The translations under genes and the position numbers were made by a program. The notes beneath the pieces were generated by a model. It saw only the letters and a program-made list of their open reading frames with translations. It made no database searches and was not told the origin of the DNA. Source: a virus. From it: 64,000 nt of DNA. This document shows, piece by piece, positions 36,394 to 61,968 of the stretch. Numbering within the stretch: position 1 is the first letter of the stretch; every line of letters begins with the position of its first letter. Location of the stretch: positions 1 to 64,000 of IMG/VR virus record IMGVR_UViG_3300033571_011534, one strand, 5' to 3'.

Positions 36394-36591
36394 TTATTCA
36401 CCGTCCCAACAAGTGTTCCAGTCAGTTTCGCAAGGCTCCCAATACTGAAAGCTTGAGCAGAAAGCGCAACCTGCGAACTTATCGTGCTTGATACAGTAAG
36501 CCCTATCCTGGTATTCATCACAACAGCGGAATAGGTCATCACCGCTTAGGGTGTAGTAGTAATCACTTACCTTGAACATTGTTTGAGTCAT
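36394..36591 (-). CDS. Small Cys-rich early protein
   Basis: AGAAAGGAT RBS; ORF track. Confidence 0.6.
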   Translation of the reverse strand: MTQTMFKVSDYYYTLSGDDLFRCCDEYQDRAYCIKHDKFAGCAFCSSFQYWEPCETDWNTCWDGE

Positions 36592-36617: not shown

Positions 36618-36665
36618 TTATTTGCTAGGCTCATACCGCTAAGGGTCTTATTTGCTAGGCTCATA
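36618..36665. repeat. 18-bp direct repeat TTATTTGCTAGGCTCATA x2
   Basis: 36618-36635 and 36648-36665. Confidence 0.9.
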
Positions 36666-36788
36666 ACCTTTTTTTTCTTATTTATTTATCTTGCTTTTAG
36701 CCTAACACGAACCTACGACATTTATACCCCTTTTTCTAGCCTTTTTGATACAAACTTTAGACTAATTTTTTGTAGGGTATCTACAAAG

Positions 36789-36818
36789 TTATCCACAGGC
36801 ATAGAATAGTTATCCACA
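36789..36818 (+). promoter_or_regulatory. Two perfect DnaA boxes (TTATCCACA)
   Basis: 36789-36797 and 36810-36818, 21 bp apart. Confidence 0.7.
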
Positions 36819-36972
36819 GGTGCGCCGAGGCCCTATATCTAGTAGTACTAATTAAGTTACGATACTAGATCTAGATCTCCCAGAATTATAACAAAATGAT
36901 AACAACAACGGCGTGTCGCTTGATAAATGTCGTAGGGTTGTGGTAGGTTGTTAGTAGTTAGAAAGGATAGAA

Positions 36973-37197
36973 ATGAATAACGAACTATTTGAGAAATTGG
37001 TATCACTAAAGACTGATACTCATACCGCTAGGTTTAGCGATGATGGCTCTGCCGTCAAACACGATGAAGAAAAATACCAAAAGGCTTTGGCTAGTCAAAA
37101 CGACTTTACTGATGAAGAGATAACAGCGGAGAGTGTTCGCCGTTGGAACCTGATGATACAGAAAATGAACGAGGCATACCAAGCCAAAATGTCCTAG
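36973..37197 (+). CDS. Small early protein
   Basis: AGAAAGGAT RBS; motif promoter upstream. Confidence 0.7.
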   Translation: MNNELFEKLVSLKTDTHTARFSDDGSAVKHDEEKYQKALASQNDFTDEEITAESVRRWNLMIQKMNEAYQAKMS

Positions 37198-37232
37198 GGT
37201 TATGCTAGGCTAATTTTAGAAAGAAGGAAAAA

Positions 37233-37412
37233 ATGGAAGAAAAAATCTGTGTATTTTGTATGAACCTAGTCAATGACTATGTATGCTTTGAGTGTGATGA
37301 CTACAAGGGTCTAATGCCACTAAAGGAAGCTGAGAGCTATCTAGGTGAGGACTTCCCTGAAGAGTACCGCCAACCAATGGCTATCTATGGGCAGAGGCTC
37401 TACTGGCAATAA
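37233..37412 (+). CDS. Small Cys-rich early protein (CxxC..CxxC)
   Basis: MEEKICVFC...CFEC; RBS and motif promoter. Confidence 0.65.
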   Translation: MEEKICVFCMNLVNDYVCFECDDYKGLMPLKEAESYLGEDFPEEYRQPMAIYGQRLYWQ

Positions 37413-37458
37413 ATGTCAGAGGGTCATGCTAGGTTATAAGTAATTAGAAAGGATAAAG

Positions 37459-37632
37459 ATGTACTACAACAGAGAAGCCCACCAACTACTAGAGGACACC
37501 CTAAAGGTTCTTCAGGCTAAAAGAAAACACGCCTACCCATACATGGTTGGACTACTAATGCCAAATGTTCCTTTGACAGAGGCTAAGAGAATTGCTAAGA
37601 TTGTAGAAGAAATGGAGAGTGAAAATGACTGA
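37459..37632 (+). CDS. Small early protein
   Basis: AGAAAGGATAAA RBS; MYYNREAHQLL. Confidence 0.65.
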   Translation: MYYNREAHQLLEDTLKVLQAKRKHAYPYMVGLLMPNVPLTEAKRIAKIVEEMESEND

Positions 37633-37801
37633 GGAAGATTTCGATGATTGGCTAGATGATGTTTATCCAACTTATCAAATTGCGGGGGTAGAGTTGCGTC
37701 CCTCACAAATGCTAAAGAACTGCGACCCTATCGCATACAGAATTGCGATGTCAGAATGTGAAGATAGAGAAGAGGAATGGAATGGCTACTTTGACAACTG
37801 A
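37625..37801 (+). CDS. Small acidic early protein
   Basis: FDDWLDDVYP...PSQMLKNCDPIAYR. Confidence 0.65.
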   Translation: MTEEDFDDWLDDVYPTYQIAGVELRPSQMLKNCDPIAYRIAMSECEDREEEWNGYFDN

Positions 37802-38021
37802 AGAACTAGAAACCCTAATTTTTCAAATTGACCTAATGCTATCTGATGACAAAATGTCTGAGGGTGTTGGTAGTCTTTTTACAACAAGAGAGGATAACTA
37901 AATGATTTTTTATAACGGATTCAATCTAATGATTGATTTGATTTTGGTTGCTGTTGTGTATGTTGTTGCTCACGGAATTGGATACCGCAAAGGCTTAGAC
38001 AAAAACAAAACACCATTTTAG
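37782..38021 (+). CDS. Two tiny ORFs (37782-37901; 37902-38021, hydrophobic)
   Basis: Abutting 39-aa ORFs with GAGGA RBSs. Confidence 0.5.
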
Positions 38022-38165
38022 CAACACGCCAAAGCCAGGGCTTGACAATTCTGGTTTTTTGGGCCGAGGCGATCTGATCGGGCCCCAAATTTTGTTTACG
38101 AAGATGTTTACGAAATTCCCAAAAAATCTCCCAAAAATGTCAGAGGGTCAATGTATAATAAGGCT

Positions 38166-38615
38166 ATGAAACTAGGAAAAGCTAATGAATCAAGACGCAA
38201 GGCGGAAAGTCAAGAACTATTCCGCAACTTACTAAAAGCTCCTCACCTAGTTTCTACCCCTCAAAAATACAAGGGTAGCCGTCAGTCTAACAAGACTAAC
38301 GCTATCAAGGAAAGTAGAGCAAGTGAGTAATTATAACTGTTGGGACTGTAATAAACTAACTAGACACTTATTCGAATACAGAACAATAAATGTCTGTGCC
38401 TCATGCTATGCTATTAGAGTTGGACACCCCTCAGCAAGAAAGTTGGTAAAGTAATGGGAAAGTATTCTGTTGGCTATGACGGTTTCGTTATCGTCAATGC
38501 TAAGAATGAGGAAGAGGCCTATAACAAGGCTAACAAGTATCTAAGCAAGACTAACCTTATCAATGATGGTGATGAGGGTGAATGGTATCTTACTGAAGCG
38601 GAAGAGATAAAGTAA
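38166..38615 (+). CDS. Three small overlapping ORFs (38166-38330, 38323-38454, 38454-38615)
   Basis: Leaderless first start; translational coupling. Confidence 0.55.
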
Positions 38616-38917
38616 TGGGAAGAATGACGGCCATGTCAATTGCAGAGACAGATGTATCACTAGAGCAACAACTAGCCTGGCACCTTCAAGGGAATCACTA
38701 TCCACCAATTCCAAAAGCAATGGTTCAACCCTGCATAGACGCTATTGACGCTTATTGGGAAGAGGACTATGACAGACTAATCCAATTGCCAATTGATGGC
38801 TTAGACCGTAATGGAGAGCCATTCCAAATTAGATGGCGTGATGGCTCAGACAAGGCCCCTGCATGGGCATTAGTTGAACACGCTCACCTTGACAGTTGGC
38901 TGCCTGAAATAGAATAA
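38615..38917 (+). CDS. Hypothetical protein
   Basis: WHLQGNHYPP motif; TAATG coupling. Confidence 0.7.
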   Translation: MGRMTAMSIAETDVSLEQQLAWHLQGNHYPPIPKAMVQPCIDAIDAYWEEDYDRLIQLPIDGLDRNGEPFQIRWRDGSDKAPAWALVEHAHLDSWLPEIE

Positions 38918-38961
38918 ATGTCAGACGTCGTCTGTATAATTGTCTAAGAAAGGATACCCCA

Positions 38962-39681
38962 ATGCCCCTAATACGTTCAAAAGATAGAAAGGTAACAAAT
39001 GCTGTATCTCCGAATGGTAAGTCGCCCACTATTGCTAACACCTTTGGGCTTCCGTCTGGTAAAGCGTTTTCCTGCCCTGGAGCGACTAGTGTATGCGAGA
39101 AAGTCTGCTACGCTGGCAAGCTTGAGAAAATCTACAAGGGAGTAAAAGACGTTCTTCTAAACAATTGGGACCTGCTACGTAATGCAGACCAATTGGAGAT
39201 GGAAGCGCTACTTTACCAAATGATAGATGAGTTTGATAAAGACTGTAACAAGCGCAATGCAGAAAAGCTGTTTCGAATTCACTGGGATGGAGACTTCTTC
39301 AATGAGACTTACACTCACGCTTGGAAGAATGTAATCAAGGCTTGGCCTAGCATTCAATTCTGGGTATACACTCGTTCAGACTTTTCGGTACCTATTCTTA
39401 GCGATGTTGACAACCTTAGCCTGTACTTCTCAACTGATGATGACAACTGGCAGCTGGCTAGTAAGTTGAAGCAAGAGACTGGCGTCAAGCTTGCATACCT
39501 TGCCAATAACTTTGCAATGGGTAAAGAGCGGATGTTGTCTATAACACCTAAGTCTGCAATTCCTTGTCCTGAGAATGCTAAGAAACTTCCGCTAATCAGT
39601 GACAAGGGCTCCGCCTGCGTAACTTGCGGACAGTGTGTGTTCGCTCGCAATGACATTTTATTTAGCGCTAGCAAAAAGTAA
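38962..39681 (+). CDS. Gp88-like (radical-SAM-like Cys motif) protein
   Basis: FGLPSG..SCPGAT.VCEKVCYA; FRIHWDGDF; FWVYTR; C-terminal Cys cluster. Confidence 0.75.
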   Translation: MPLIRSKDRKVTNAVSPNGKSPTIANTFGLPSGKAFSCPGATSVCEKVCYAGKLEKIYKGVKDVLLNNWDLLRNADQLEMEALLYQMIDEFDKDCNKRNAEKLFRIHWDGDFFNETYTHAWKNVIKAWPSIQFWVYTRSDFSVPILSDVDNLSLYFSTDDDNWQLASKLKQETGVKLAYLANNFAMGKERMLSITPKSAIPCPENAKKLPLISDKGSACVTCGQCVFARNDILFSASKK

Positions 39682-39800
39682 GGAGATGAGGTAAAATATA
39701 CCATGGACGCATTTTATATCATAACTATTTTACTTCTTATGTCTCTATTGCTAGTCTCTACTAATCGAAAATAGACTCATGCTATAGGGGCATGTAAACT

Positions 39801-39836
39801 GTAGGGATCTTCTTACATCCTTTCTTAGGTCCTTAC
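39801..39836 (+). ncRNA. Hairpin with anti-RBS loop (UCUUACAUCCUUUCUU)
   Basis: 10-bp stem with 2 G-U pairs. Confidence 0.55.
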
Positions 39837-39864
39837 CGTCCTGGCTACGACGTAAAACTGGCCA
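39837..39864 (+). ncRNA. H-type pseudoknot motif, copy 1
   Basis: CGTC-CTGGCTAC-GACG-TAAAAC-TGGCCA. Confidence 0.55.
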
Positions 39865-39979
39865 CAATCTGGGCCGAGGGCTTTATAACAAAATAATAAA
39901 GATTTAAGATCCTTTACGACACGCTCCCAAAATGTCGTAGGGTTGGTGTATAGTAATACTACCTAACAGAAAGTAGAGT

Positions 39980-40543
39980 ATGGGAACTAGAGGAATAACA
40001 GAAGTAATTTACAATGGCGAGACTGTAGTTAGCCAGTATGGTCAATGGGACCACTACCCAAGCGGTCAGGGTATCACAGCGTTCAAGTTTCTACGCAGCC
40101 AAGAAAACATCGACAACCTAAAGAAAAACCTTAGCCTAGTCTATGTTCCAAGTGATGAGGAATACAAGTCTATTGTTAGCAAGTATTCTGATGAGCGTGG
40201 AATGATGACTATGGAGCAAGGTGAAGAGTATAGCAAGATGTATCCAAGTCTTACTAGAGATACTGGTGCTGGTATCCTTGAGGTAATTGCTAACGCTACC
40301 AATCCAGTTCCGTTGTTCCTGGACCTAGAGTTCAAAAACGACAGACTGTTTTGTGAGGGTGTCTACACAATCAACCTAGATGACAACACTTTCACAACTA
40401 GATACAATCGCTATGAAAATGAAAATGATGAAGATACTTTGACTTTATCTTTTGAGCAGATTCTTTACACAGGTGAAGATGACTATCTGGAAAAAGCAAA
40501 GTGTGGAGTCTATCAGTATCTCAAGGCTGAGGCTTTAGCCTAA
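39980..40543 (+). CDS. Hypothetical phage protein
   Basis: MGTRG...QYGQWDHYPSGQG; GAAAGTAG RBS. Confidence 0.75.
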   Translation: MGTRGITEVIYNGETVVSQYGQWDHYPSGQGITAFKFLRSQENIDNLKKNLSLVYVPSDEEYKSIVSKYSDERGMMTMEQGEEYSKMYPSLTRDTGAGILEVIANATNPVPLFLDLEFKNDRLFCEGVYTINLDDNTFTTRYNRYENENDEDTLTLSFEQILYTGEDDYLEKAKCGVYQYLKAEALA

Positions 40544-40766
40544 CAAAGATACCCTGCCAGCTTGACAAACTGGTGGGGATCTGGTCGGGCCCAAAACTAG
40601 TAATTTGTCAAGTTTACGATTATAACAATTTTTCCCCTGAATTGTTATAAAAAAAATAGGGCGTGGCTCTTGATAATGTCGGAGGTATGCCCTATAATTT
40701 AGGAGTAGCAAAAACGACTACTAAATAGAAAAATCCTAGTGGAAAGACTAGGTGAAAGGAAGCAAA

Positions 40767-40922
40767 ATGGCAAATGTAATTGCCCCCGTTGTTGGCTCAC
40801 AATACACTACTCAGAAATCAGGTGTTTCTGGGATTGTTCAGGAAGTAGTGGCAAATAAGACTGGCACTTATCGTGTTCGTCTTGATGTAAATGGTCAGCC
40901 ACGCTGGACAACTATCAAGTAA
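40767..40922 (+). CDS. Small beta-rich early protein (51 aa)
   Basis: GAAAGGA RBS; MANVIAPVVGSQYTTQKSG. Confidence 0.65.
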   Translation: MANVIAPVVGSQYTTQKSGVSGIVQEVVANKTGTYRVRLDVNGQPRWTTIK

Positions 40923-40933
40923 TAAATTAGTTT

Positions 40934-40970
40934 GAGGGGGTAGAGTTATTTATCCTTTCGCTACCCCCTC
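40934..40970 (+). ncRNA. Hairpin with anti-RBS loop (AGUUAUUUAUCCUUUCG)
   Basis: Perfect 10-bp stem GAGGGGGTAG/CTACCCCCTC. Confidence 0.55.
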
Positions 40971-41030
40971 TCCTAAAATGTCTTACCCTGCCCCTATAAT
41001 GTAATTACCCCAAATAGAAAGTAGAAACAA

Positions 41031-41477
41031 ATGGCTAGAACCCTGTCCGTAAAAGTTCCAACAAGCAAACTAATCGCAGACATTGAGGCAAGTATTGCTA
41101 AGATTGACGCAGACATTGAGGCGTATGCTGGAAAGCGTAAGCAGTATGAAGCAGACATAAAGCAGTATGAGAAAGACCTTGTTGCTTTTGCGATTGACGC
41201 ACTAAAGAACCCAGACAACATTGGAACAGAACACAACGCACTAATTCGCATCACAACCAACAACTACCGCAACGCTGTATCTGTTGATTTTGATACTGAG
41301 GCACTTGGCTTTCCAAAGCGACCAGAAGAGCCAGCCAGACCAAATGAAAAAAGTTATTTTGGTAGGGACTACACCACACGCAAGGAAATCCTAGAGAAGA
41401 ACCTTCGTATTCTCAAGATGACCTCGCAAGAGGAAGTATCAGCGAGTTCATACTCATCTGTTATTGACCTAATCTAA
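41031..41477 (+). CDS. Hypothetical coiled-coil protein
   Basis: GAAAGTAG RBS; motif promoter. Confidence 0.75.
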   Translation: MARTLSVKVPTSKLIADIEASIAKIDADIEAYAGKRKQYEADIKQYEKDLVAFAIDALKNPDNIGTEHNALIRITTNNYRNAVSVDFDTEALGFPKRPEEPARPNEKSYFGRDYTTRKEILEKNLRILKMTSQEEVSASSYSSVIDLI

Positions 41478-41479
41478 TC

Positions 41480-41747
41480 TTATTCGCACAAATACTGTGT
41501 AGGCAACTACTCTAAAGCTGAAGCGAATAATCACCTGAGCAAGTGGCTAAACTGCTCACTAGATTTGGTAAGGCAGATGCTATTTGCTGTTGCTGAATAG
41601 AAGTGAGTGCTAGCACAAAAACTTCGTTCCTTACCTCCAAAGATTGATCCTGCTAATTGTAATGGTACACTGGGCTTGGATCAATACCCCCTGTTGCAAT
41701 CAATTTGATAGATGCCCAGTTCGAACGAAGCATCTCGCAGGGGGATC
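41480..41747 (+). ncRNA. Structured non-coding RNA cluster, includes pseudoknot copy 2 (41532-41558)
   Basis: Multiple nested stems and a putative kissing loop; no ORF. Confidence 0.55.
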
Positions 41748-41895
41748 TTCCCATTTTTGGGTCGGGCCGCCGTTACCAAATTGTTATTTACGAAGACTAA
41801 TTATTTTTTCCTAGATTCTTGACAAATGTCAGAGGGTGGCTGTAAAATAGTCTCAACAAACAAATAACTAATAACCCTAATAGAAAGTAGATAAA

Positions 41896-42897
41896 ATGGC
41901 ACACTTGCTAGAACAGTCCGCAACAGGCGAAACCGCTTTTGCTTCTTTTCGTGAGCCTGCTTGGCACCAGCTAGGCACAGTTTTCAATGAAGAAGTCTCA
42001 ACTAACAAGATGTTGAAACTCGCACACCTTGACAACTGGAATGTTCGCTTGGAAGATGTAGCGATTCCAAATGGTTTTGAGAGTGACAAGAATTATTTCT
42101 TCGTGACTAGAACTAACCCATTCAACAAAGAGCAAAATGATGTCCTTGGCGTAGTTGGTGAAAGATACAATGTTCTTCAGAATGAAGACTTATTTGATTT
42201 CGGTGATGCCCTGCTAGATGGTGGTCGCTGGGAAACTGCTGGTTCAATCAAGAACGGAAGACAGGTTTTCGGTTCTCTTGCTCTTGAGCGTGAAACAGTT
42301 CTTGACCCTAACGGCGTGTCAGATGTTGTAAAGTCTTATTTGCTAATCAACACTAGCCACGACGGCTCAGTTGCTATTCAGGCAAGTATCACACCTGTTC
42401 GTGTTGTATGTGCTAACACTCTAAATCTTGCTCTTGGTAAAGGCAACAGAGGTGTCAAGCAAACTTTCAAGATTCGCCACACCGCAACAGCATCTGGCAA
42501 GGTTGCTCAAGCTAGAGAGGCTCTTGGTCTTGCTAATAAGTATCTTGATGAGTTTGATAAGCTTGCTCAGTCTATGATTGCTAAAGAAATTACTAAGGCT
42601 CAGTTTGACAAGATTGTTGAGCTTGCTTATCCAAAGCCTGACAAGGACACAAAGGGTGCTGTCAAGAAGTGGGAAAACAAAACAGACATTCTTCAGGGAA
42701 TCTATGTTGGCTCAACTAACGGAATGATTGCTGGAACTGCTTGGGGTGCTTTCAACGCTCTAACAGAGAGACTAGACTGGTATCGCACTGCTAGAGGTGG
42801 TTCTAACGAATCTATTCTAGCTGCTGCTTCTGGTTTTGACCCTGTGACTACCGCAGAAAAGAACAGACTGCTTCAGCTGGTCTTGGCTAACGCCTAG
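41896..42897 (+). CDS. DUF932-family phage/plasmid protein
   Basis: PAWHQLG, YNVLQNEDLF, WETAGSIKNGRQVF, SHDGS, TPVRVVCANTL, GTAWGAFNA. Confidence 0.85.
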   Translation: MAHLLEQSATGETAFASFREPAWHQLGTVFNEEVSTNKMLKLAHLDNWNVRLEDVAIPNGFESDKNYFFVTRTNPFNKEQNDVLGVVGERYNVLQNEDLFDFGDALLDGGRWETAGSIKNGRQVFGSLALERETVLDPNGVSDVVKSYLLINTSHDGSVAIQASITPVRVVCANTLNLALGKGNRGVKQTFKIRHTATASGKVAQAREALGLANKYLDEFDKLAQSMIAKEITKAQFDKIVELAYPKPDKDTKGAVKKWENKTDILQGIYVGSTNGMIAGTAWGAFNALTERLDWYRTARGGSNESILAAASGFDPVTTAEKNRLLQLVLANA

Positions 42898-42902
42898 CCA
42901 AA

Positions 42903-42929
42903 AGTCCTGAGCATGACTAAAAACTGCTC
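42903..42929 (+). ncRNA. H-type pseudoknot motif, copy 3
   Basis: AGTC-CTGAGCAT-GACT-AAAAAC-TGCTC. Confidence 0.55.
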
Positions 42930-43088
42930 TCCATTCATTTGCCAGGATCTAAAATTTTGGGCCGAGGGCCTAAAATAAACTTAATTAATAAAAAATCTTA
43001 ATTACGAACTATCAAAAAAATTCGCAGAAATCTTGATAAATGTCGGAGGGTCATGTCATAATAGACCTACCCTAAAGAAAGTAGACAA

Positions 43089-43283
43089 ATGCCCAAATAC
43101 TATGTGAAGATGCGTATTGACTTTGCTGGTGAGCTAGAAGCAGAATCAGCTGAGGCAGCCGAACAACTAGCTTGGACTAGTTGGGGAGACTCTATGGACA
43201 ACGACATAACCTATGATGGTGTTTATGACATTGACGTAGAAGAGATTGAAGATGATGAGGAAGATGAGGAAGAAGATGAATAA
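43089..43283 (+). CDS. Small very acidic protein
   Basis: GAAAGTAG RBS; EAESAEAAE motif. Confidence 0.7.
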   Translation: MPKYYVKMRIDFAGELEAESAEAAEQLAWTSWGDSMDNDITYDGVYDIDVEEIEDDEEDEEEDE

Positions 43284-43418
43284 GCACTTCCGCTGCCAGA
43301 CTACAATTTCTTTTGACCAGGTATCAGATGGATACTATGCACAATGCCCTAGTTGCGATGAAGACCTATTTAGTTTTGAGGTCGTATAATGTCAGAGGGT
43401 AGTGTTATAGTATCTACT

Positions 43419-43655
43419 ATGAAAGTATGCCCCAATCATTCAGGTAGTTTTGACTGTACCCCCTTTTGTCGTATCTGTGAGGGAAACCAGGAGTACGAGT
43501 CAAACGGCTACCTACCATGTAACAGATTCGGCCACTGTGGAGAATACATTGAGGAGGACATCTGGCATGAGGAGCTAGGCTTCTGTGTTGAATGTTCTCA
43601 CTTATACTGGGACCAAGAGCTAGACCCATTTACACTAGAGAGGATAGAGCAGTGA
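43419..43655 (+). CDS. Small Cys-rich protein
   Basis: Leaderless start 7 nt after TATAGT. Confidence 0.6.
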   Translation: MKVCPNHSGSFDCTPFCRICEGNQEYESNGYLPCNRFGHCGEYIEEDIWHEELGFCVECSHLYWDQELDPFTLERIEQ

Positions 43656-44097
43656 AAGAGTGGACCACCTTTATAAATAAATCTAATAAGAATGAGTTTG
43701 AGACTCTGCTAGCAGACATAATGTCAGAGGCTCTTGCTAAACTAGATACTGTCCCTGATGAAGAACTAGAAAGGCTAATTGACTGTGAGTAAAACTTGGC
43801 AAGTAGAATACAACGCTACCTATTGGGTAGAAGCAGAAACAGAAGACGAGGCTATTGAGTTGGCTATTGAATCACACGCTGACCTACCTAACGGAGACTG
43901 GGAAGCACACATTGAGCAGAAGTGGGAGACGAAAGCATAATGGCTACCAGCGAAATGGAAAAGATTGGATACGAGAATGGTATTAGATTTGCTATTCATT
44001 CCATAGAAAAATCTCTAGACAATCCAGCACTAAACATCTTGACACCAAAGCAGAGTCTTGGTATCCTATTAGCATCACTAAGAATGGAGATTCAGTA

Positions 44098-44295
44098 ATG
44101 TCCTATGTATTAGAACAAACAAGCTATGTTTCAGAAGACGGAAACTTTGGAACAGGCTACCTACTAACATTCCCCTACAATGCGCTGACTGAAGAGCAGT
44201 GGGAAGTATTGGACATGCTAAACGATAGCTCTAAGATGGAGTATGCCCACGCTATCCTAAATGGACAGGCTGACCTATCGGAGTGGGAAGGCTAA
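44098..44295 (+). CDS. Small acidic protein
   Basis: ORF track. Confidence 0.6.
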   Translation: MSYVLEQTSYVSEDGNFGTGYLLTFPYNALTEEQWEVLDMLNDSSKMEYAHAILNGQADLSEWEG

Positions 44296-44567
44296 TGGCC
44301 AAAGAGGTCTGGAGTGTGTCTGTCTACAAAGAAGGCATAATCGAAATAGACACTGATGAAATGACTATCGAACAGGCGGTAGAGGATTGGGTCTATGACC
44401 TGGAAGTTGACTACGACCTAATTGAAAGAGTGGAAGGCTAGTCCTTCCATTTTTTCGGTCGGGGCTGATCTTTAAATAAAATACTTATAAATAAAAAACC
44501 TTTAAGATCTCATTATTTTTTTTCCCAGATCCTTGATAATGTCAGTGGGTAGCAGTATACTATAGTC

Positions 44568-44954
44568 ATGAAAGTAAAGTTGATTGATCCAGAAAAAGCT
44601 AAAAACGTATTGGGACTAGACAAGGAAGAGCACTGGGTTGCCCCTTCTGTTGTTGTCAACACCCCCAAAGGCCTAGCCGTAGTTTGCTATGAAGGTGTAG
44701 GCTGGTTCGAAAACGAGGGCAAGTACAAGATCCTTGTTGGAGATGAATGGAATGATTGGGTAAAAGAAATCACTAAGGATGAACTTATTAGTATTATTTC
44801 TAATAAGGAAACTACCCTTCATCAGTTAATTGATCCGCACAATGATAGGACTAGATCTAATCTATCGATCTGGGAGAATCAGATTAAGAATACCCCGCAA
44901 AATGTCGTAGGGTTAGGTTATAATGAGGAAAAGAAAGAGGTGGCAAATGCCTGA
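44568..44954 (+). CDS. Hypothetical protein
   Basis: Leaderless, 6 nt after TATACT of motif promoter. Confidence 0.7.
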   Translation: MKVKLIDPEKAKNVLGLDKEEHWVAPSVVVNTPKGLAVVCYEGVGWFENEGKYKILVGDEWNDWVKEITKDELISIISNKETTLHQLIDPHNDRTRSNLSIWENQIKNTPQNVVGLGYNEEKKEVANA

Positions 44955-45126
44955 ATACAAAGTTCAAAGAGAGTACACCAACTGGGAAGAAATTACAGTT
45001 GAGGCAGATTCGGAAGAGCAAGCTTTAGAGATTGCAGAGGACGACGAAGACTTATGGAACTATGCAATTGATGCTAGTTCATATAATTACACAGGTGAGA
45101 CCTGGGTAGGAGAAGCAGATGCCTAA
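44947..45126 (+). CDS. Small acidic protein
   Basis: VEADSEEQALEIA motif; GAGGTG RBS. Confidence 0.65.
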   Translation: MPEYKVQREYTNWEEITVEADSEEQALEIAEDDEDLWNYAIDASSYNYTGETWVGEADA

Positions 45127-45289
45127 GCACATGCATTACTTTAGCTATGGAGCCTGCATTCATTGCGGTAAGGCAGTCAACAAAGGCCTTGGCGTAGACC
45201 TGTACAAGGGAAAAAGGGTTTAAGAACCCTCTTGACAAAATCCCAGAATCCTGAGATAATAGTTTTACCCTAGAGAAAGTATAACCCCA

Positions 45290-45694
45290 ATGGAGAACAC
45301 AAAAGTAGAAGCGCCCTACACAGAGTACCAAGGTTGGAACGAATGGGCAGATAAATACAAGCCTATCAAGAATCACTTACGCAATGACCCAGACGAAACC
45401 ATGTTCGAGACCTATGGCGAAGAGGTTGAGTTTGTATCTAACTATGACAACAAGTATGTCTGGACCTATTTGCAAGGAGACATGTCTGACCTTATTTGTG
45501 CAGGCTATCACTATGTAAATAGATTAGGATACTACATCTCTGAGGTACCGTGGACGAACGAGGATGACTATGTCCTGCTATCAGTAGAAGTAGAATGCAA
45601 ATGCTACGACGAAGATGCATACGACGATGGTGGTTTTGGAAATCCAGAATGCCAAGAATGTGAAGGGTATGGCTATGTCACAAATTATGTATAG
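45290..45694 (+). CDS. Hypothetical protein with C-terminal Cys motifs
   Basis: FETYGEE...VWT...GYHYVNRLGYY. Confidence 0.7.
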   Translation: MENTKVEAPYTEYQGWNEWADKYKPIKNHLRNDPDETMFETYGEEVEFVSNYDNKYVWTYLQGDMSDLICAGYHYVNRLGYYISEVPWTNEDDYVLLSVEVECKCYDEDAYDDGGFGNPECQECEGYGYVTNYV

Positions 45695-46046
45695 GAATAA
45701 GAACAGAGACAAGACCAAGGTCGTCTATGACCTAAACATCTTTAAACGTGAGCTATTAAACGACGAAGGTGAATACGAGCACATGGGCCCCTGGTACATT
45801 CATATCTATGAATACGACGGTGGCAATATCGAAGAGGTAGGCGATCCGATTGAGTTGACGTCTGCTGAAGCTGATAGTCTTATTAATAATGACCCATACT
45901 TTCAAAACCATGAGCCAGACCTATGGTACGGCCTGGAGGGATTCATGTTTGAAAAGTGGGATGCATTGCCAGACAGGCTTAAGGCTGTATTTGAATGGTT
46001 ACCCAAGTACAAGGAAGACATGGGGTATGGCCTTGTCAATGATTAA
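45687..46046 (+). CDS. Hypothetical acidic protein
   Basis: ORF track (start trimmed to MYRNK). Confidence 0.6.
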   Translation: MYRNKNRDKTKVVYDLNIFKRELLNDEGEYEHMGPWYIHIYEYDGGNIEEVGDPIELTSAEADSLINNDPYFQNHEPDLWYGLEGFMFEKWDALPDRLKAVFEWLPKYKEDMGYGLVND

Positions 46047-46118
46047 ACTAAGATTGATGCGTTGAGCCAAGCTCCGCATCATATGGATACGACAGTTAGG
46101 GGTAGCTAGCGTATCCAG

Positions 46119-46158
46119 GGGGTGTCAGGACTTTTCCTACTTTCAGTCTTGACACCCC
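46119..46158 (+). ncRNA. Hairpin with anti-GAAAGTAG loop (UUUCCUACUUUC)
   Basis: 14-bp stem with one G-U. Confidence 0.55.
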
Positions 46159-46197
46159 AACCAATTTGTGGGATAATGGGCACAGGAGAATAACCAA

Positions 46198-46398
46198 TTG
46201 ACAATGAGTGATGAAGAAAAGGTCGCAGTAAAAATTACTGGACTTCTTTCTGACCATAGGCTAAACTTAGACAGGGTTGGCTTGTATGTGGCAAGAGAAG
46301 AACCAAGTAGCAATTACAGACGACTAATGATTGTGGCAGAAGCCGCTGATGAGGAATGGGAGAGCAGGTATGGCAGACACGACAGCAACAAGCTATGA
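46198..46398 (+). CDS. Hypothetical protein
   Basis: TTGACA-18-GATAAT promoter, AGGAG RBS. Confidence 0.65.
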   Translation: MTMSDEEKVAVKITGLLSDHRLNLDRVGLYVAREEPSSNYRRLMIVAEAADEEWESRYGRHDSNKL

Positions 46399-46660
46399 GG
46401 CAAAGTGTGAAATCCTTGCTGATGTTTGGATAGAGTATAGAGATGAAGAAGCCTTTCAGGAACTGATGGAGTTTGCTGACTTAGGCTTTCCACTTGCGTA
46501 TGCTGTTCAGGGCGGTATCATAGAGAGCAACGAACGAGTAGAAGAATTAGTAGAGGGAACTTTCACCTTGCTACTTCAGTTGCTCAAAGTTGATGACACT
46601 GGCTTTGACAGTATCACCCAGCTCTTTGACAAATCCGAAGAAGCAAATAAATCAAAATAA
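46370..46660 (+). CDS. Hypothetical acidic protein (paralog of 50983-51258)
   Basis: KCEILADVW...DLGFPLAY...DDTGF. Confidence 0.7.
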   Translation: MADTTATSYEAKCEILADVWIEYRDEEAFQELMEFADLGFPLAYAVQGGIIESNERVEELVEGTFTLLLQLLKVDDTGFDSITQLFDKSEEANKSK

Positions 46661-46908
46661 TTTTTGACCCAGCTTGACATTCGATCAAGACTGTGGTCGG
46701 GGTATGTTATCAAAATGTTATCAAACCACTATTGACAAAACCTTTACGATGGACTATAATATTTCCCTGAAATTTGATCGAGGTCTATCCAAACCTCAAA
46801 CCTTATATTGTTTAACATATTACGATCATCTGTAAAAAATCGCTGAAATATTTTACATATAGGTTTGGGTATTTTTGGCAATCTTATCAAACATGATATA
46901 CTTATGCC

Positions 46909-47106
46909 ATGAGTCCAAGACATTTCTATAGAGCATACTATCCAGAAGAAGCCAAGAAGATGGATCAAGCATATGCTGAAGCTGGTGTTATTATTGTAGA
47001 TACTGTTACTAGAGCATTTAAGAGGTTTGTTATTCCTTTCTTTGTACCTGGCCTCAGGGAGACTAATAATACTGACAAAGATAATGCCAAGGGCATCAAA
47101 GAATAA
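46909..47106 (+). CDS. Hypothetical protein
   Basis: TGATATACT -10 just upstream. Confidence 0.5.
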   Translation: MSPRHFYRAYYPEEAKKMDQAYAEAGVIIVDTVTRAFKRFVIPFFVPGLRETNNTDKDNAKGIKE

Positions 47107-47568
47107 CCCCATTCCCCCCTATATAAATAACATTACGAAGAACATAAAAAAATCGCTGAAATCTTTTTCTTTTGGCCAGATTTCATTTAAAATGGTTTAG
47201 TTTTTGATATTTTTATGGCCATATTTTATATAAAAAATGCTTGACATTTGACGGATATTATGGTATAAAGGTTTGGCGTTTAAGGGGTGTAAGGGTTTGG
47301 GGTTTGGTAAATGATTACGAGTTTAAGTTAATATGTGCTCCATTATCCACTATCCTCCATATCACTCCACTTTAACTCTATTAAACTTAATAAACAGTAA
47401 GATCTTTTATCCAAAACATGGTCTCTAAACATGCTCTAAATAGCCACAGAATCGATTTTGAGGGGGGTATACAAACCTTCGTATCTTGGATGTGGGGCTA
47501 TGGGGATATCTGGATATCAGGCTTATTTCTCTATAGTGTTATTGGTTATATAGGGGATGGTGGTTTGA

Positions 47569-48150
47569 TTATTTGATACCGTCGGAGTTTAGGCTATCCC
47601 TAATCTTATGAGCTTCATCAAAGATAGGATCGTCCTGGAGATATCTCATGTGCGAATAGTCTAGGTCTTCATCTATAAACCTAAAGAAAGCCATGGTTAT
47701 AAACTCTCCCTCTTTGAAGGTCTTATGTGGTCTCCAATGAGGATACTCATTTGGGTTAAATATGATAGCTTCGTTGTCTTCCATCTCAAAGACTTCCTTG
47801 TCTACCGCCAGACCCCATGTCGTATTGGACTTGTATTGGTAGTCAATAATTAATCCATTATTGTCCCCATCAAAGTGTGGTGGGAGATTTGGCTGTCCAT
47901 ATTTTGCATCATAGTCGACAAACATAACTCCTATTTGTGGAAGCTTCCTGCCAACAAGTTTTTCGACTCTCTCTTGAATACCCTCTAAAGTGGGCATCGG
48001 CAGTCTTGCCACATACATGAGTCTTCCAAGGACTGGGTCGTGTTTCTTTTCTGATCTATACATCCACTCATCCTCATCAGTAAGGATGTGCTCGATTACT
48101 TCTAGCTCTTCTGGGAGGAGAAAGTTTTTGACCCTGTACACATTGTCCAT
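47569..48150 (-). CDS. 2OG-Fe(II) oxygenase-like protein
   Basis: LPPHFD...HWR; leaderless. Confidence 0.7.
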   Translation of the reverse strand: MDNVYRVKNFLLPEELEVIEHILTDEDEWMYRSEKKHDPVLGRLMYVARLPMPTLEGIQERVEKLVGRKLPQIGVMFVDYDAKYGQPNLPPHFDGDNNGLIIDYQYKSNTTWGLAVDKEVFEMEDNEAIIFNPNEYPHWRPHKTFKEGEFITMAFFRFIDEDLDYSHMRYLQDDPIFDEAHKIRDSLNSDGIK

Positions 48151-48182
48151 ATGTTAAATTATACCATTTCTGGACAAGCTCA

Positions 48183-48512
48183 TTAAATATCGTCGTCGAC
48201 TGTATTGTTTAGCTCTATAGGCTTAAGTAGATCCATAGCATGCTTGTACTGGATTGCCTTGTTACCCTGCCCCATGTTAATGGCAGACTCAAACATCATG
48301 TTCAGGACATATTGGATACGAACCTGCTCTGCTTCGATACCAGACTGATACCCATTGCTATACCCTAGCTCATAGTTATAGTCAGCCTCAGAGCTATTCT
48401 CAGATTCAGATTCTTCATATCCAATATCGTAGCCAAGCTCATATCCGTGCTCTTGTCCAGCGTCAAAGATTTCTTTTTCTTCGTCTGTTAGCTCATCGTA
48501 GTTCACTGCCAA
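48183..48512 (-). CDS. Acidic protein with GY(E/D) repeats
   Basis: ORF track. Confidence 0.6.
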   Translation of the reverse strand: MAVNYDELTDEEKEIFDAGQEHGYELGYDIGYEESESENSSEADYNYELGYSNGYQSGIEAEQVRIQYVLNMMFESAINMGQGNKAIQYKHAMDLLKPIELNNTVDDDI

Positions 48513-48723
48513 CCTCCAAGGTTTCCTTTAGGTGTGAAAAGATTGTCTCCTGGTAAATGGGTGTCCTTGTCCTACGAGACTGTTCCTCTAGTTTGTTTAT
48601 TTCATTAAGAACCCTAAGCCTCTCATCCAACCTTGCCTTTTCAACAAAGTCATTGATAGCCTTAACATCTGACTTAGAGGTGCTTGGGTCTAGCACCAAC
48701 ATTCCATGCTCGTACTTAATCAT
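48493..48723 (-). CDS. Hypothetical protein
   Basis: ORF track, overlapping operon. Confidence 0.55.
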   Translation of the reverse strand: MIKYEHGMLVLDPSTSKSDVKAINDFVEKARLDERLRVLNEINKLEEQSRRTRTPIYQETIFSHLKETLEVGSELR

Positions 48724-48973
48724 TACGCCAAATCTCCACTCCTACGAAAAGGTTAAGAATCTCAAAACTAATGGACCTGTCATAGAAGTTGATTGCAGCT
48801 GCGATACCCCAGTGATCTGTCCTGCCAGCATAGAAGCCTATCGTATCGAAAAGGACTATGCTACGACTAAATCCAAAGGTATTGCTATCAATCCTAATCC
48901 ACTTACGCCTACCTGCCTTTTGCAGGTCTTTGTCTGTATAACCCTCTGCGTGAAGGCTTGCCATCTTAGCCAT
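48716..48973 (-). CDS. Hypothetical protein
   Basis: ORF track. Confidence 0.55.
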   Translation of the reverse strand: MAKMASLHAEGYTDKDLQKAGRRKWIRIDSNTFGFSRSIVLFDTIGFYAGRTDHWGIAAAINFYDRSISFEILNLFVGVEIWRND

Positions 48974-49175
48974 TAGATTGCTCCCAGTCTCCCTTGTATG
49001 TGTAGTTCACTCCTAGCTTAGGTAGGTAAACACAAATCTCGTCAGGCTCCAAATACCTTGTGTGCTTGTCAGATGTAATATGAAACATCCAGGTGCCTTC
49101 TGCTACCTCTGTCTCTACATCCATGTCGCTCATTAGATTAATAAACGTGTCACGCTTAGCTGTTACGAACATCAT
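48966..49175 (-). CDS. Hypothetical protein
   Basis: ORF track; TTGACA..TAAAAT promoter upstream. Confidence 0.55.
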   Translation of the reverse strand: MMFVTAKRDTFINLMSDMDVETEVAEGTWMFHITSDKHTRYLEPDEICVYLPKLGVNYTYKGDWEQSNG

Positions 49176-49326
49176 ACCCTTTGCTCTCAGTAGTACTATT
49201 TTATAGTATTACGAAGACATTGTCAATACCCCAGGATGCTAGAGGCTATTGCTATGTAATAGCATACTAATCTCTATAATCCGCCGAACTTTTTGCCGCC
49301 GAACTTAATGCTATAATGTATAAGAT

Positions 49327-49801: not shown

Positions 49802-50164
49802 CTAAATATCTTCTTTTTCTAGCCAGGCTACTAGCTCTGGATTGTCACGCAAGAACATTAGCATTGCATTTTCGTAAACACCAATAAAGAAATGCTCCCA
49901 CTCCTCAAAGTCTGCCTCTGGCTTTGGGAGGCCGTTCTCAAAGACCATCCTCATTGCATGTAGGATTTCGTGCAGTAGCGTTACCTGCTGCTTGCTACGA
50001 CTAAGGGCACTGGAAACGACAATAAGGTTTCCAAGATCAAGAGTGTACCCATTTGTACCATCATTAAGCATGCCGTCATCTTTTGGGTCACGGAACACAA
50101 TATTAAAAACTTGGCTTCCAACCTTTACCTTTTCTGGATAAGCCTCTACCTTAGTCGACTTCAT
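49802..50164 (-). CDS. HExxH metallopeptidase-like phage protein
   Basis: TLLHEILHA. Confidence 0.6.
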   Translation of the reverse strand: MKSTKVEAYPEKVKVGSQVFNIVFRDPKDDGMLNDGTNGYTLDLGNLIVVSSALSRSKQQVTLLHEILHAMRMVFENGLPKPEADFEEWEHFFIGVYENAMLMFLRDNPELVAWLEKEDI

Positions 50165-50348: not shown

Positions 50349-50843
50349 CTATGATATTAGTGGTTCTTTGTTTACGTGTGTTACCCAGAAGTAACTACAA
50401 GTGCTGCAGCATGGTTTGTTGTCCTTGCTGACAGTGGCAATCTTAAAGGAATAGTAATACTCTGGATCCTTCTTGTAAAGATTAGCTTTATGCGTAGTTA
50501 TGATTCTATCACTAAACTCTGGGTTTTGCAACCACTCTGGAAACTGGCTTCCCCACAGGAACTTCTTTGAAGACCTAAGATTTGCTAGATTTTCCTCATT
50601 CTTATCTGTCTTGATACCACGCTTTTTTGCCTCCTGGACCATGGCTTTTGCATAGGTAAACAGGACGTGCTCTGAGCCTCGCCACATCTTGACAGCTGGA
50701 TGATTGCGCCAGCCAGCTTTTGGATCATCGCTTGAAAGGACCTTTAGTATTTGATAAGTTTCTAGTATTTGCTTGTTTAGTCTTTTTGAGTCTAGCGTCT
50801 GCGCTATATCTTTAAAGTTTTTTGATGTAAGGAAAGTCTGCAA
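50349..50843 (-). CDS. Pyrimidine-dimer DNA glycosylase/endonuclease V-like (MSMEG_6728-like)
   Basis: MQTFL...LDSKRLNKQILE.YQIL...WRNHPAVKMWRG...THKANL..KDPEYY. Confidence 0.85.
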   Translation of the reverse strand: MQTFLTSKNFKDIAQTLDSKRLNKQILETYQILKVLSSDDPKAGWRNHPAVKMWRGSEHVLFTYAKAMVQEAKKRGIKTDKNEENLANLRSSKKFLWGSQFPEWLQNPEFSDRIITTHKANLYKKDPEYYYSFKIATVSKDNKPCCSTCSYFWVTHVNKEPLIS

Positions 50844-50982
50844 TGTTGCCTTCTTCTGTAGAGAGTTTTCTTATGTACCCATTATAGCTTATAACCAAAT
50901 GCCTGTCAAGAATATCTTATTAAATAAACTAATTACTCATTATTGACAAAAAGGATTATCTTTGATATAATTATGTAGAGGA

Positions 50983-61677: not shown

Positions 61678-61968
61678 TTATTTGCCCTTATCCATTGTTA
61701 AAACTTCCCAGGTTTTGGCCCAGTCTTTTTTATTTCTATGACGATTAAACTCTTTTGAAATTTTTCCAGATTCTAGATACACTCCACCCCAGACACCCCA
61801 TTCTTTTTGAGAGATGCCAACAGCAAAGCACTGCCTCACAACTGGACAGCCAGAGCAAAGCTGATCTATTGCTGGACGTAAGAGTTCATCTTCTTCGTAT
61901 GTATCAAAAAATAAATTAGTATCATAATCACGACAAGAGGAATCATCTTTCCACTTGCCACTATCCAT
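61678..61968 (-). CDS. whiB: WhiB-family transcription factor
   Basis: W...C...FF...C..CPV..QC...WGVWGG. Confidence 0.9.
   Translation of the reverse strand: MDSGKWKDDSSCRDYDTNLFFDTYEEDELLRPAIDQLCSGCPVVRQCFAVGISQKEWGVWGGVYLESGKISKEFNRHRNKKDWAKTWEVLTMDKGK

Follow-up and report, generated by a model that had tools for sequence, protein, structure and literature searches.

The first 64 kb of the viral record IMGVR_UViG_3300033571_011534 (75,731 bp, approximately 67% complete, approximately 40% GC), hereafter the window, carry between 36.7 and 44.9 kb an array of a short repeated element, AATGTC-N12-TAnnnT. These elements are promoter-like and have the core and the spacing of the PafBC/RecA-NDp promoters of actinobacteria. 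Comparison with sites in candidate host genomes leads us to consider it somewhat more probable than the contrary that the phage promoters are read by the host's own PafBC protein through "sigma adaptation". On a broader proposal our judgement is evenly balanced, namely that a large lineage of lake actinophages (more than 600 contigs whose portal proteins are 75–80% identical) starts or boosts a terminal-repeat gene block by means of the host PafBC, which senses single-stranded DNA, so that the host's alarm for DNA damage or foreign DNA would act as the ignition of the phage.

The window contains the core motif TGTC-N12-TAnnnT 29 times, versus 10.3 ± 3.4 times in shuffled sequences, none of 100 shuffles reaching 29. 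The complete form, AATGTC-N12-TAnnnT, is found 17 times in the 75.7-kb record, versus 0–6 times when any other spacing within N8–N16 is imposed. An earlier note made from the sequence of this DNA had listed 17 elements of invariant spacing, and these were recovered as an array of 16 copies on the plus strand and one on the minus strand, with a single plus-strand copy carrying CATAAT. Every AATGTC on the plus strand between 36690 and 44930 is part of an element. The same note had seen no copy outside 36.7–44.9 kb, a statement that has to be amended by an 18th, doubtful copy at 49198–49221 (minus strand). Among the 18 copies of the record, the TAnnnT hexamer is present in 17 (the exception being CATAAT) and the TGTC core with its GTC in all 18. 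The consensus is aAATGTC-(A/G/T)(G/T)-A-(GGG or CCC)-N-TG-N-TAnnnT, which places the AATGTC box at −30 to −25 and the GGG or CCC tract at −21 to −19; TG at −15/−14 is frequent among the phage sites.

The position of the elements relative to genes is that of promoters, and the earlier description of them as lying upstream of open reading frames (ORFs), several of them leaderless, holds. A start codon in the same orientation follows every copy, and 15 copies have a AGAAAGGA/GAAAGTAG-type Shine-Dalgarno sequence with the start 21–107 nt away. Three copies (those at 38137, 43389 and 44539) are leaderless, with ATG 6–7 nt past the −10 hexamer, an arrangement typical of actinobacterial mRNAs without a leader; together with five leaderless sites in the candidate host genome G235 described below, they support the promoter status of the element. 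A TTGA(C/T)A hexamer stands 17–18 nt from the −10 in five array copies (36920, 40670, 41819, 43033 and 44533). These are real −35/TGTC hybrids, as had been suggested, and such hybrids are kept in related phages. The remaining 12 of the 17 array copies have no −35, and the doubtful 18th has TTGACA.

From left to right, the array opens with the leftward copy AATGTCGTAGGTTCGTGTTAGGCT (36699–36722, minus strand, A of ATGTC at 36721), which faces leftward genes and whose first ATG with a Shine-Dalgarno sequence is 107 nt downstream, at 36591. All other array copies are on the plus strand, and the A of ATGTC is given after each range. The first is a hybrid (36920–36949; 36927) consisting of a TTGATA −35 (36920–36925), an AATGTC box and a TAGGTT −10, with ATG 23 nt downstream. 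It is followed by an AATGTC box without −35 and with −10 TAGGCT (37188–37211; 37189), which overlaps the stop codon of the preceding ORF, by a AATGTCAGAGGGT box with −10 TAGGTT (37412–37435; 37413), where the TAA of the preceding ORF stands immediately before ATGTC, and by an AATGTC box with −10 TAGTCT (37853–37876; 37854). The next copies are a AATGTCAGAGGGT box with −10 TATAAT, leaderless with ATG 6 nt past the −10 (38136–38159; 38137), an AATGTC box with −10 TATGCT (38389–38412; 38390), an AATGTC box with −10 TATAAT upstream of a GP88-family gene (38917–38940; 38918), and a AATGTCGTAGGGT box with −10 TATAGT upstream of a 187-aa gene (39931–39954; 39932). A second hybrid, with a TTGATA −35, a 17-nt spacer containing ATGTC and a TATAAT −10 (40670–40698; 40676), precedes a AATGTCTTACCC box, the CCC variant, with −10 TATAAT upstream of a 148-aa gene (40977–41000; 40978). 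Two further hybrids combine a TTGACA −35, an 18-nt spacer, a AATGTCAGAGGGT box and a TAAAAT −10 upstream of a DUF932 gene at 41896–42897 (41819–41848; 41826), and a TTGATA −35, a AATGTCGGAGGGT box and the sole non-TA hexamer, CATAAT (43033–43062; 43040). The right end comprises a leaderless AATGTCAGAGGGT box with −10 TATAGT and ATG 7 nt past it (43388–43411; 43389), a AATGTCAGAGGC box with −10 TAAACT (43720–43743; 43721), a leaderless hybrid with a TTGATA −35, a AATGTCAGTGGGT box (a perfect TGTCRGTG RecA-NDp core), a TATACT −10 and ATG 6 nt past it (44533–44561; 44539), and a AATGTCGTAGGGT box with −10 TATAAT (44901–44924; 44902). The doubtful 18th copy (49198–49226, minus strand, box to −10 at 49198–49221) is a TTGACA-17-TAAAAT promoter with ATGTC in its spacer and no G/C tract, and may be an ordinary promoter with a chance overlap.

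The −10 hexamers also drift along the array: the five left-end copies (the leftward and the first four rightward ones) have TAGGTT, TAGGCT or TAGTCT, and TATAAT or TATAGT predominates in those that follow, a trend that recurs in the relatives.

The geometry of the phage element equals that of the PafBC motif, tGTCgg(N10)tA(N3)T, as the earlier note had recognised. The 5' part of that motif lies at −23 to −28 and its GTC is read by residues R46 and R50 of PafB, with PafBC positioned between sigma-A region 4 and the DNA in an arrangement called "sigma adaptation"; promoters of this kind lack a −35, and their DNA stays straight rather than bending at −18 to −23 (PMC8635444). PafBC is activated by single-stranded DNA (PMC11804915). 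The way in which GTC is read is conserved throughout the phylum. We conjecture that the GGG/CCC tract at −21 to −19 of the phage sites, in either orientation, may favour such a straight DNA path.

For comparison with cellular sites we used small freshwater actinobacterial genomes, which represent candidate host lineages and may not include the phage's own host. ORFs with a WYL domain were present in 299 of the 301 genomes sampled from the actinobacterial class, a tally that includes the unpublished genomes G009, G017, G026, G032, G034, G038, G045 and G265, used for no other claim. In 18 of 19 small actinobacterial genomes (1.3–1.9 Mb), one TGTC-N12-TAnnnT element, for instance TTGTCAGTGGCGCCTGCTACCTT, precedes recA and is followed by an SOS box. 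G235 is a complete genome of 1,436,726 bp and 45.9% GC and, because it carries heliorhodopsin and a photolyase-related gene, is identified by its gene content as a freshwater acI-like organism. Actinobacteria of the acI type are among the most abundant freshwater bacteria. The pattern TGTCRG-N10-TAnnnT occurs 16 times in this genome versus 6–7 times at shifted spacings, and its sites, five of them leaderless, lie upstream of recA, an RNase_H_2-like 572-aa gene, a DnaQ-like exonuclease, a PD-(D/E)XK nuclease, a DUF6504 gene and a C5 methylase. An adjacent pair of WYL ORFs is also present in G235, one of which matches PafB of the RNA polymerase-PafBC structure 7p5x (E 1.4e-35) and keeps the RMFER motif (R46, R50). 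NCBIfam gave no name for this PafB/PafC-like pair, and the match to solved PafBC structures was used instead; Pup ligase was not found in G235, and "proteasome accessory" synteny is therefore unusable there. Thus, the candidate lineages possess PafB/PafC and carry the element upstream of recA and repair genes, which bears on the earlier advice to look for pafBC in the predicted host.

The resemblance extends beyond core and spacing. Across 17 small genomes the pattern WWTGTCAGNGG-N7-TAnnnT was found 17 times versus 0 for the control, with flanks AA (10) or TT (7), and two of these host sites are AATGTCAGAGGG, identical to the phage consensus. When a matrix was built from the host spacer columns only, 96 phage array sites scored −0.7 bits versus −7.9 bits for 44 other TGTC-N12-TAnnnT sites of the same contigs (p 5e-10), and only 5 of 2000 column-permuted host matrices reached the observed value.

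Several observations on these genomes stand apart from that comparison. A Cys-rich DUF7455 protein of the phage (63356–63598, minus strand) is 47% identical to a host protein (L231:1819-2028, minus strand). In two small actinobacterial genomes the host DUF7455 gene is preceded by a promoter of the PafBC type, AATGTCAGAGGGAAT-N-AATACCCT, that is identical to the consensus of the phage; no such promoter precedes the G235 copy. G235 additionally holds four PafBC-type promoters within 3.3 kb (G235:C1:400813-404115), three of them leaderless, around a YefM/YoeB pair and unknown genes, and this cluster adjoins the photolyase-related gene and heliorhodopsin. Two approaches to the phage's own host were abandoned. 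In a tblastn comparison of all phage ORFs with G235 the best match was a KatG-like protein (51% identity) and no near-identical gene appeared, so that no host was assigned; relatives of the phage WhiB protein were unusable as host evidence, as the phage-like contigs that carry them were binned into unrelated metagenome-assembled genomes (Methylococcus, Polynucleobacter, Chitinophagaceae, Flavobacterium, Aquiluna).

The lineage of the phage was examined through its conserved proteins. The portal protein is 47.7% identical to portals of Streptomyces cluster BE phages, the GP88-family protein (gene 38962–39681) is 54.8% identical to proteins of cluster A mycobacteriophages, and a WhiB gene (61678–61968, minus strand) has its nearest cultured relatives in Streptomyces and Rhodococcus phages. 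The DNA of this stretch also occurs in freshwater and lake metagenomes; no RNA run was among the data sets listed as containing it. Therefore, by its protein matches and habitat, the record is assigned to a low-GC actinophage from lakes whose host is not a mycobacterium but some low-GC freshwater actinobacterium.

Megablast of the array region against 50,697 phage records gave zero matches. A scan of IMG/VR with the 14-base query AAATGTCAGAGGGT returned mostly chance singletons, and only some 10 of the 120 loci proved to be true relatives. In related contigs, where the earlier note had advised looking for the motif, AATGTC-N12-TAnnnT is abundant and strongly biased to one strand (forward/reverse: G304 16/0, G305 19/0, G306 14/0, G307 1/24, G308 7/0, G309 13/1, G310 1/9, G312 17/2), with 7–24 copies on the main strand versus 0–2 matches per genome for the control pattern. 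Nearly every TGTC-N12-TAnnnT site in the arrays of five related contigs has the complete AATGTC box, and an additional array is present on a 55-kb contig bearing WhiB.

In the complete relative G309 (124,540 bp), which has a direct terminal repeat of 8,517 bp, the array begins within the unique right end at 112.4 kb and continues into the repeat, where five sites lie, two of them TTGACT-TTGTCGGTGGG hybrids. G309 is syntenic with the window, and protein-level synteny places the counterpart of its terminal repeat at about 41.5–49 kb (41500–49200, no strand, limits approximate). The right half of the array would thus correspond to a terminal repeat in a complete relative, which fits early genes read by host enzymes. 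The terminally redundant phages T5 and SPO1 keep genes for the unmodified host polymerase in their terminal repeats.

In the mechanism that we propose, the array elements would be sigma-A promoters of the PafBC (RecA-NDp) type, with TAnnnT as the −10 and TGTC at −28 to −25 (the "−26 element") replacing the −35. Single-stranded DNA would activate the PafB/PafC heterodimer of the infected actinobacterium, which would slot between sigma-A region 4 and the −26 element and switch on a block of small phage genes at the genome end, partly within the terminal repeat. For the five copies with TTGA(C/T)A, sigma-A alone could suffice for basal firing, and full dependence on the activator would be expected of copies that have a weak −10 (TAGGnT) and no −35. 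Three parts of this scheme are ones that we infer: PafBC as the reader, the supply of single-stranded DNA by infection or phage replication, and the earliness of the genes, of which the approximately 18 small ones behind the array promoters are probably early.

A number of points weigh against host PafBC as the reader. The phage box is stricter than the host sites and partly unlike them: A at −30/−29 is almost invariant in the phage and host recA sites have TT, and at −22 A is found in 75% of the sites in the phage and T in most host sites. Motif enrichment was absent from three cultured structural relatives (Streptomyces phages BoomerJR and Circinus and Rhodococcus phage NiceHouse); the trait would therefore be an innovation of the lineage and could have arrived with a lineage-specific protein. 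Dozens of small phage ORFs belong to no known family. Promoters with a −10 alone, often without −35, are common in actinobacteria, and the box could therefore modulate rather than enable expression. Furthermore, activation by PafBC would require single-stranded DNA already at the start of infection. To the right of the array, near-perfect TTGACA-17-TATAAT/GATAAT promoters without a TGTC box lie at 45.2–51 kb (45232–45260, 46149–46177 and 46732–46760 on the plus strand, and a divergent pair at 50881–50909, minus strand, and 50943–50971, plus strand), and these canonical promoters could express a phage factor first. With such promoters present, the earlier idea that the array accounts for the earliest transcription is not established.

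The first alternative is an adaptor of unknown family, encoded by the phage or delivered with the virion, that would bridge AATGTC to sigma-A in the manner of MotA/AsiA, the array then being a middle class expressed after the canonical promoters. We regard this as the less likely course of events, although a credible one. The canonical promoter class side by side with the array, the strict AA flank and A at −22, the absence of the motif from cultured structural relatives and the many ORFs of no known family all agree with it, and the authors of the PafBC work themselves liken the PafBC mechanism to that of T4 MotA/AsiA (PMC8635444). The searches for a phage-encoded reader speak against it. These six-frame searches covered the present record, five fragments and two 100%-complete relatives, and detected no WYL domain, sigma region 4 or sigma region 2. 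No match to PF09114 or PF09010 (MotA/AsiA) at E ≤ 1 was obtained in G000, G309 and G310, phmmer revealed no PafB- or PafC-like phage ORF, and Pfam revealed no DNA-binding domain in the 20 ORFs within or beside the array. A phage-encoded WYL activator, which the earlier note had offered as an alternative, is thus missing from the genomes searched, the two complete relatives included, as are sigma, MotA and AsiA genes. Moreover, copies inside a terminal repeat fit reading by the host alone. We prefer host PafBC because an unrelated factor would need to converge on the host's TGTC core, on its spacing of exactly 12 nt and on its spacer preferences, which we judge unlikely.

A quite improbable alternative is that the −10, with its extended TG, and sigma-A suffice, AATGTC being the operator of a phage or host repressor for early shut-off or silencing. 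The frequency of −35-less promoters in actinobacteria and of TG at −15/−14 in the phage sites agrees with this idea, and cluster A mycobacteriophages do have repeated asymmetric repressor sites. The box has, however, the core, the spacing and the spacer preferences of host promoters known to be activated, and the poor −10s of several copies (TAGGTT, TAGGCT, TAGTCT) are unlikely to work alone. The repressor site of those mycobacteriophages, the 13-bp stoperator GGTGGMTGTCAAG, which is repeated through their genomes, is not enriched here: allowing up to 3 mismatches, it occurs 29 times versus 23.8 ± 5.2 in shuffles, with none in register with the array, and identity of the two elements was rejected. 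CRP-like sites (TGTGA-N6-TCACA) in register with the promoters are also absent from this DNA. Finally, a role of the repeats in replication, packaging or RNA processing rather than as promoters, to which their clustering near two perfect DnaA boxes and among other repeated intergenic modules might point, is very improbable given the TAnnnT fixed at 12 nt, the strand bias shared with the genes, the placement just before start codons, the ATGs 6–7 nt past the hexamer and the identical architecture ahead of host recA.

The surroundings of the array contain further repeated features. The only two perfect DnaA boxes (TTATCCACA) of the window, at 36789–36797 and 36810–36818 (plus strand), are co-oriented, 21 bp apart and situated in the divergent gap separating the leftward from the first rightward AATGTC promoter; they may mark an origin or a site of control by DnaA. 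Within the leader from the leftward promoter to the first gene (36394–36591, minus strand), two copies of an 18-nt direct repeat, TTATTTGCTAGGCTCATA, are spaced 30 nt apart (36618–36635 and 36648–36665). Longer gaps ahead of module-first promoters, seven of which were aligned, have common blocks, namely a GGGCCGAGG/GGTCGGGCC hairpin-like element, TTTACGAA/TTAAGAT boxes and TTCCCAGA; such gaps are found at 38040–38135, 39830–39930, 40560–40675, 41730–41825, 42930–43040 and 44440–44538.

Elsewhere, the phage encodes a DenV-like pyrimidine-dimer DNA glycosylase (50349–50843, minus strand, E 9e-21), adjoined by a 120-aa ORF (49802–50164, minus strand) with a weak match to IrrE/M78 peptidases (E 0.008). 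Beyond the window, the record holds a 731-aa KatG-like catalase-peroxidase (68872–71067, minus strand) with two PF00141 stretches (E 9e-69) and 51% identity to its G235 homologue, which is unusual as an auxiliary gene in a lake actinophage, and four tRNA genes (71189–71785, minus strand; Glu-ttc, Thr-tgt, Asp-gtc and Asn-gtt). The parts of the phage that were scanned yielded no integrase.

To our knowledge, activation of the PafBC type is confined to cellular DNA-damage genes, and sigma take-over by phages at −10-only promoters is known only with phage-made factors, as in T4 MotA/AsiA; in the literature searched, we found no phage promoters described as PafBC-type. If true, a regulon in which a phage uses the PafBC element of its host would represent a third route beside these two. 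The virus would dispense with a transcription factor of its own and would couple its expression to single-stranded DNA, a signal that arises from infection, from replication and from ultraviolet damage in sunlit lake water. Approximately 20 high-quality sites per genome might also draw PafBC off the host regulon. The element would further provide a sequence signature for linking uncultured phages to actinobacterial hosts, and a natural graded set of PafBC promoters (weak or strong −10, with or without −35, GGG or CCC spacers) for dissecting sigma adaptation.

Compared with known systems, the array shares with PafBC/RecA-NDp (recA P1-type) promoters the TGTC core with an invariant GTC at −27 to −25, the exact 12 nt to TAnnnT, the lack of a −35 in 12 of the 17 array copies, a G/C-rich spacer and the frequency of leaderless genes. 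It differs in having 17–18 copies within 8 kb, versus approximately 10–16 per whole 1.4-Mb host genome, in its near-invariant AA at −30/−29, A rather than T at −22 and GGG/CCC at −21 to −19, and in the fusion of five copies to a −35; for the phage, PafBC dependence is inferred. The MotA box of T4 middle promoters has a TGCTT core centred at −30, and these promoters, served by AsiA/MotA sigma appropriation, likewise join a normal sigma-70 −10 to a special upstream box in place of the −35, in many copies before individual early-region genes and beside canonical early promoters. They differ in the sequence and position of the box (AATGTC at −30 to −25 in the present phage), and in our proposal the reader belongs to the host, no MotA/AsiA having been found in the genomes searched. 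The host-takeover and pre-early blocks of SPO1 and T5 similarly consist of many small genes with their own promoters at a genome end with a direct terminal repeat; those promoters are canonical host sigma promoters, with no activator-type box. Stoperators are also asymmetric TGTC-containing repeats with many co-oriented copies in short intergenic gaps, but they are not bound to a −10 at fixed spacing. Lastly, genes of coliphage 186 (tum), CTXphi and GIL01 are under the control of the host SOS repressor LexA, which, as in our proposal, ties phage expression to the DNA-damage signal of the host; in those temperate phages a repressor is released at one or a few promoters, whereas here an activator-type element stands at approximately 18 promoters.

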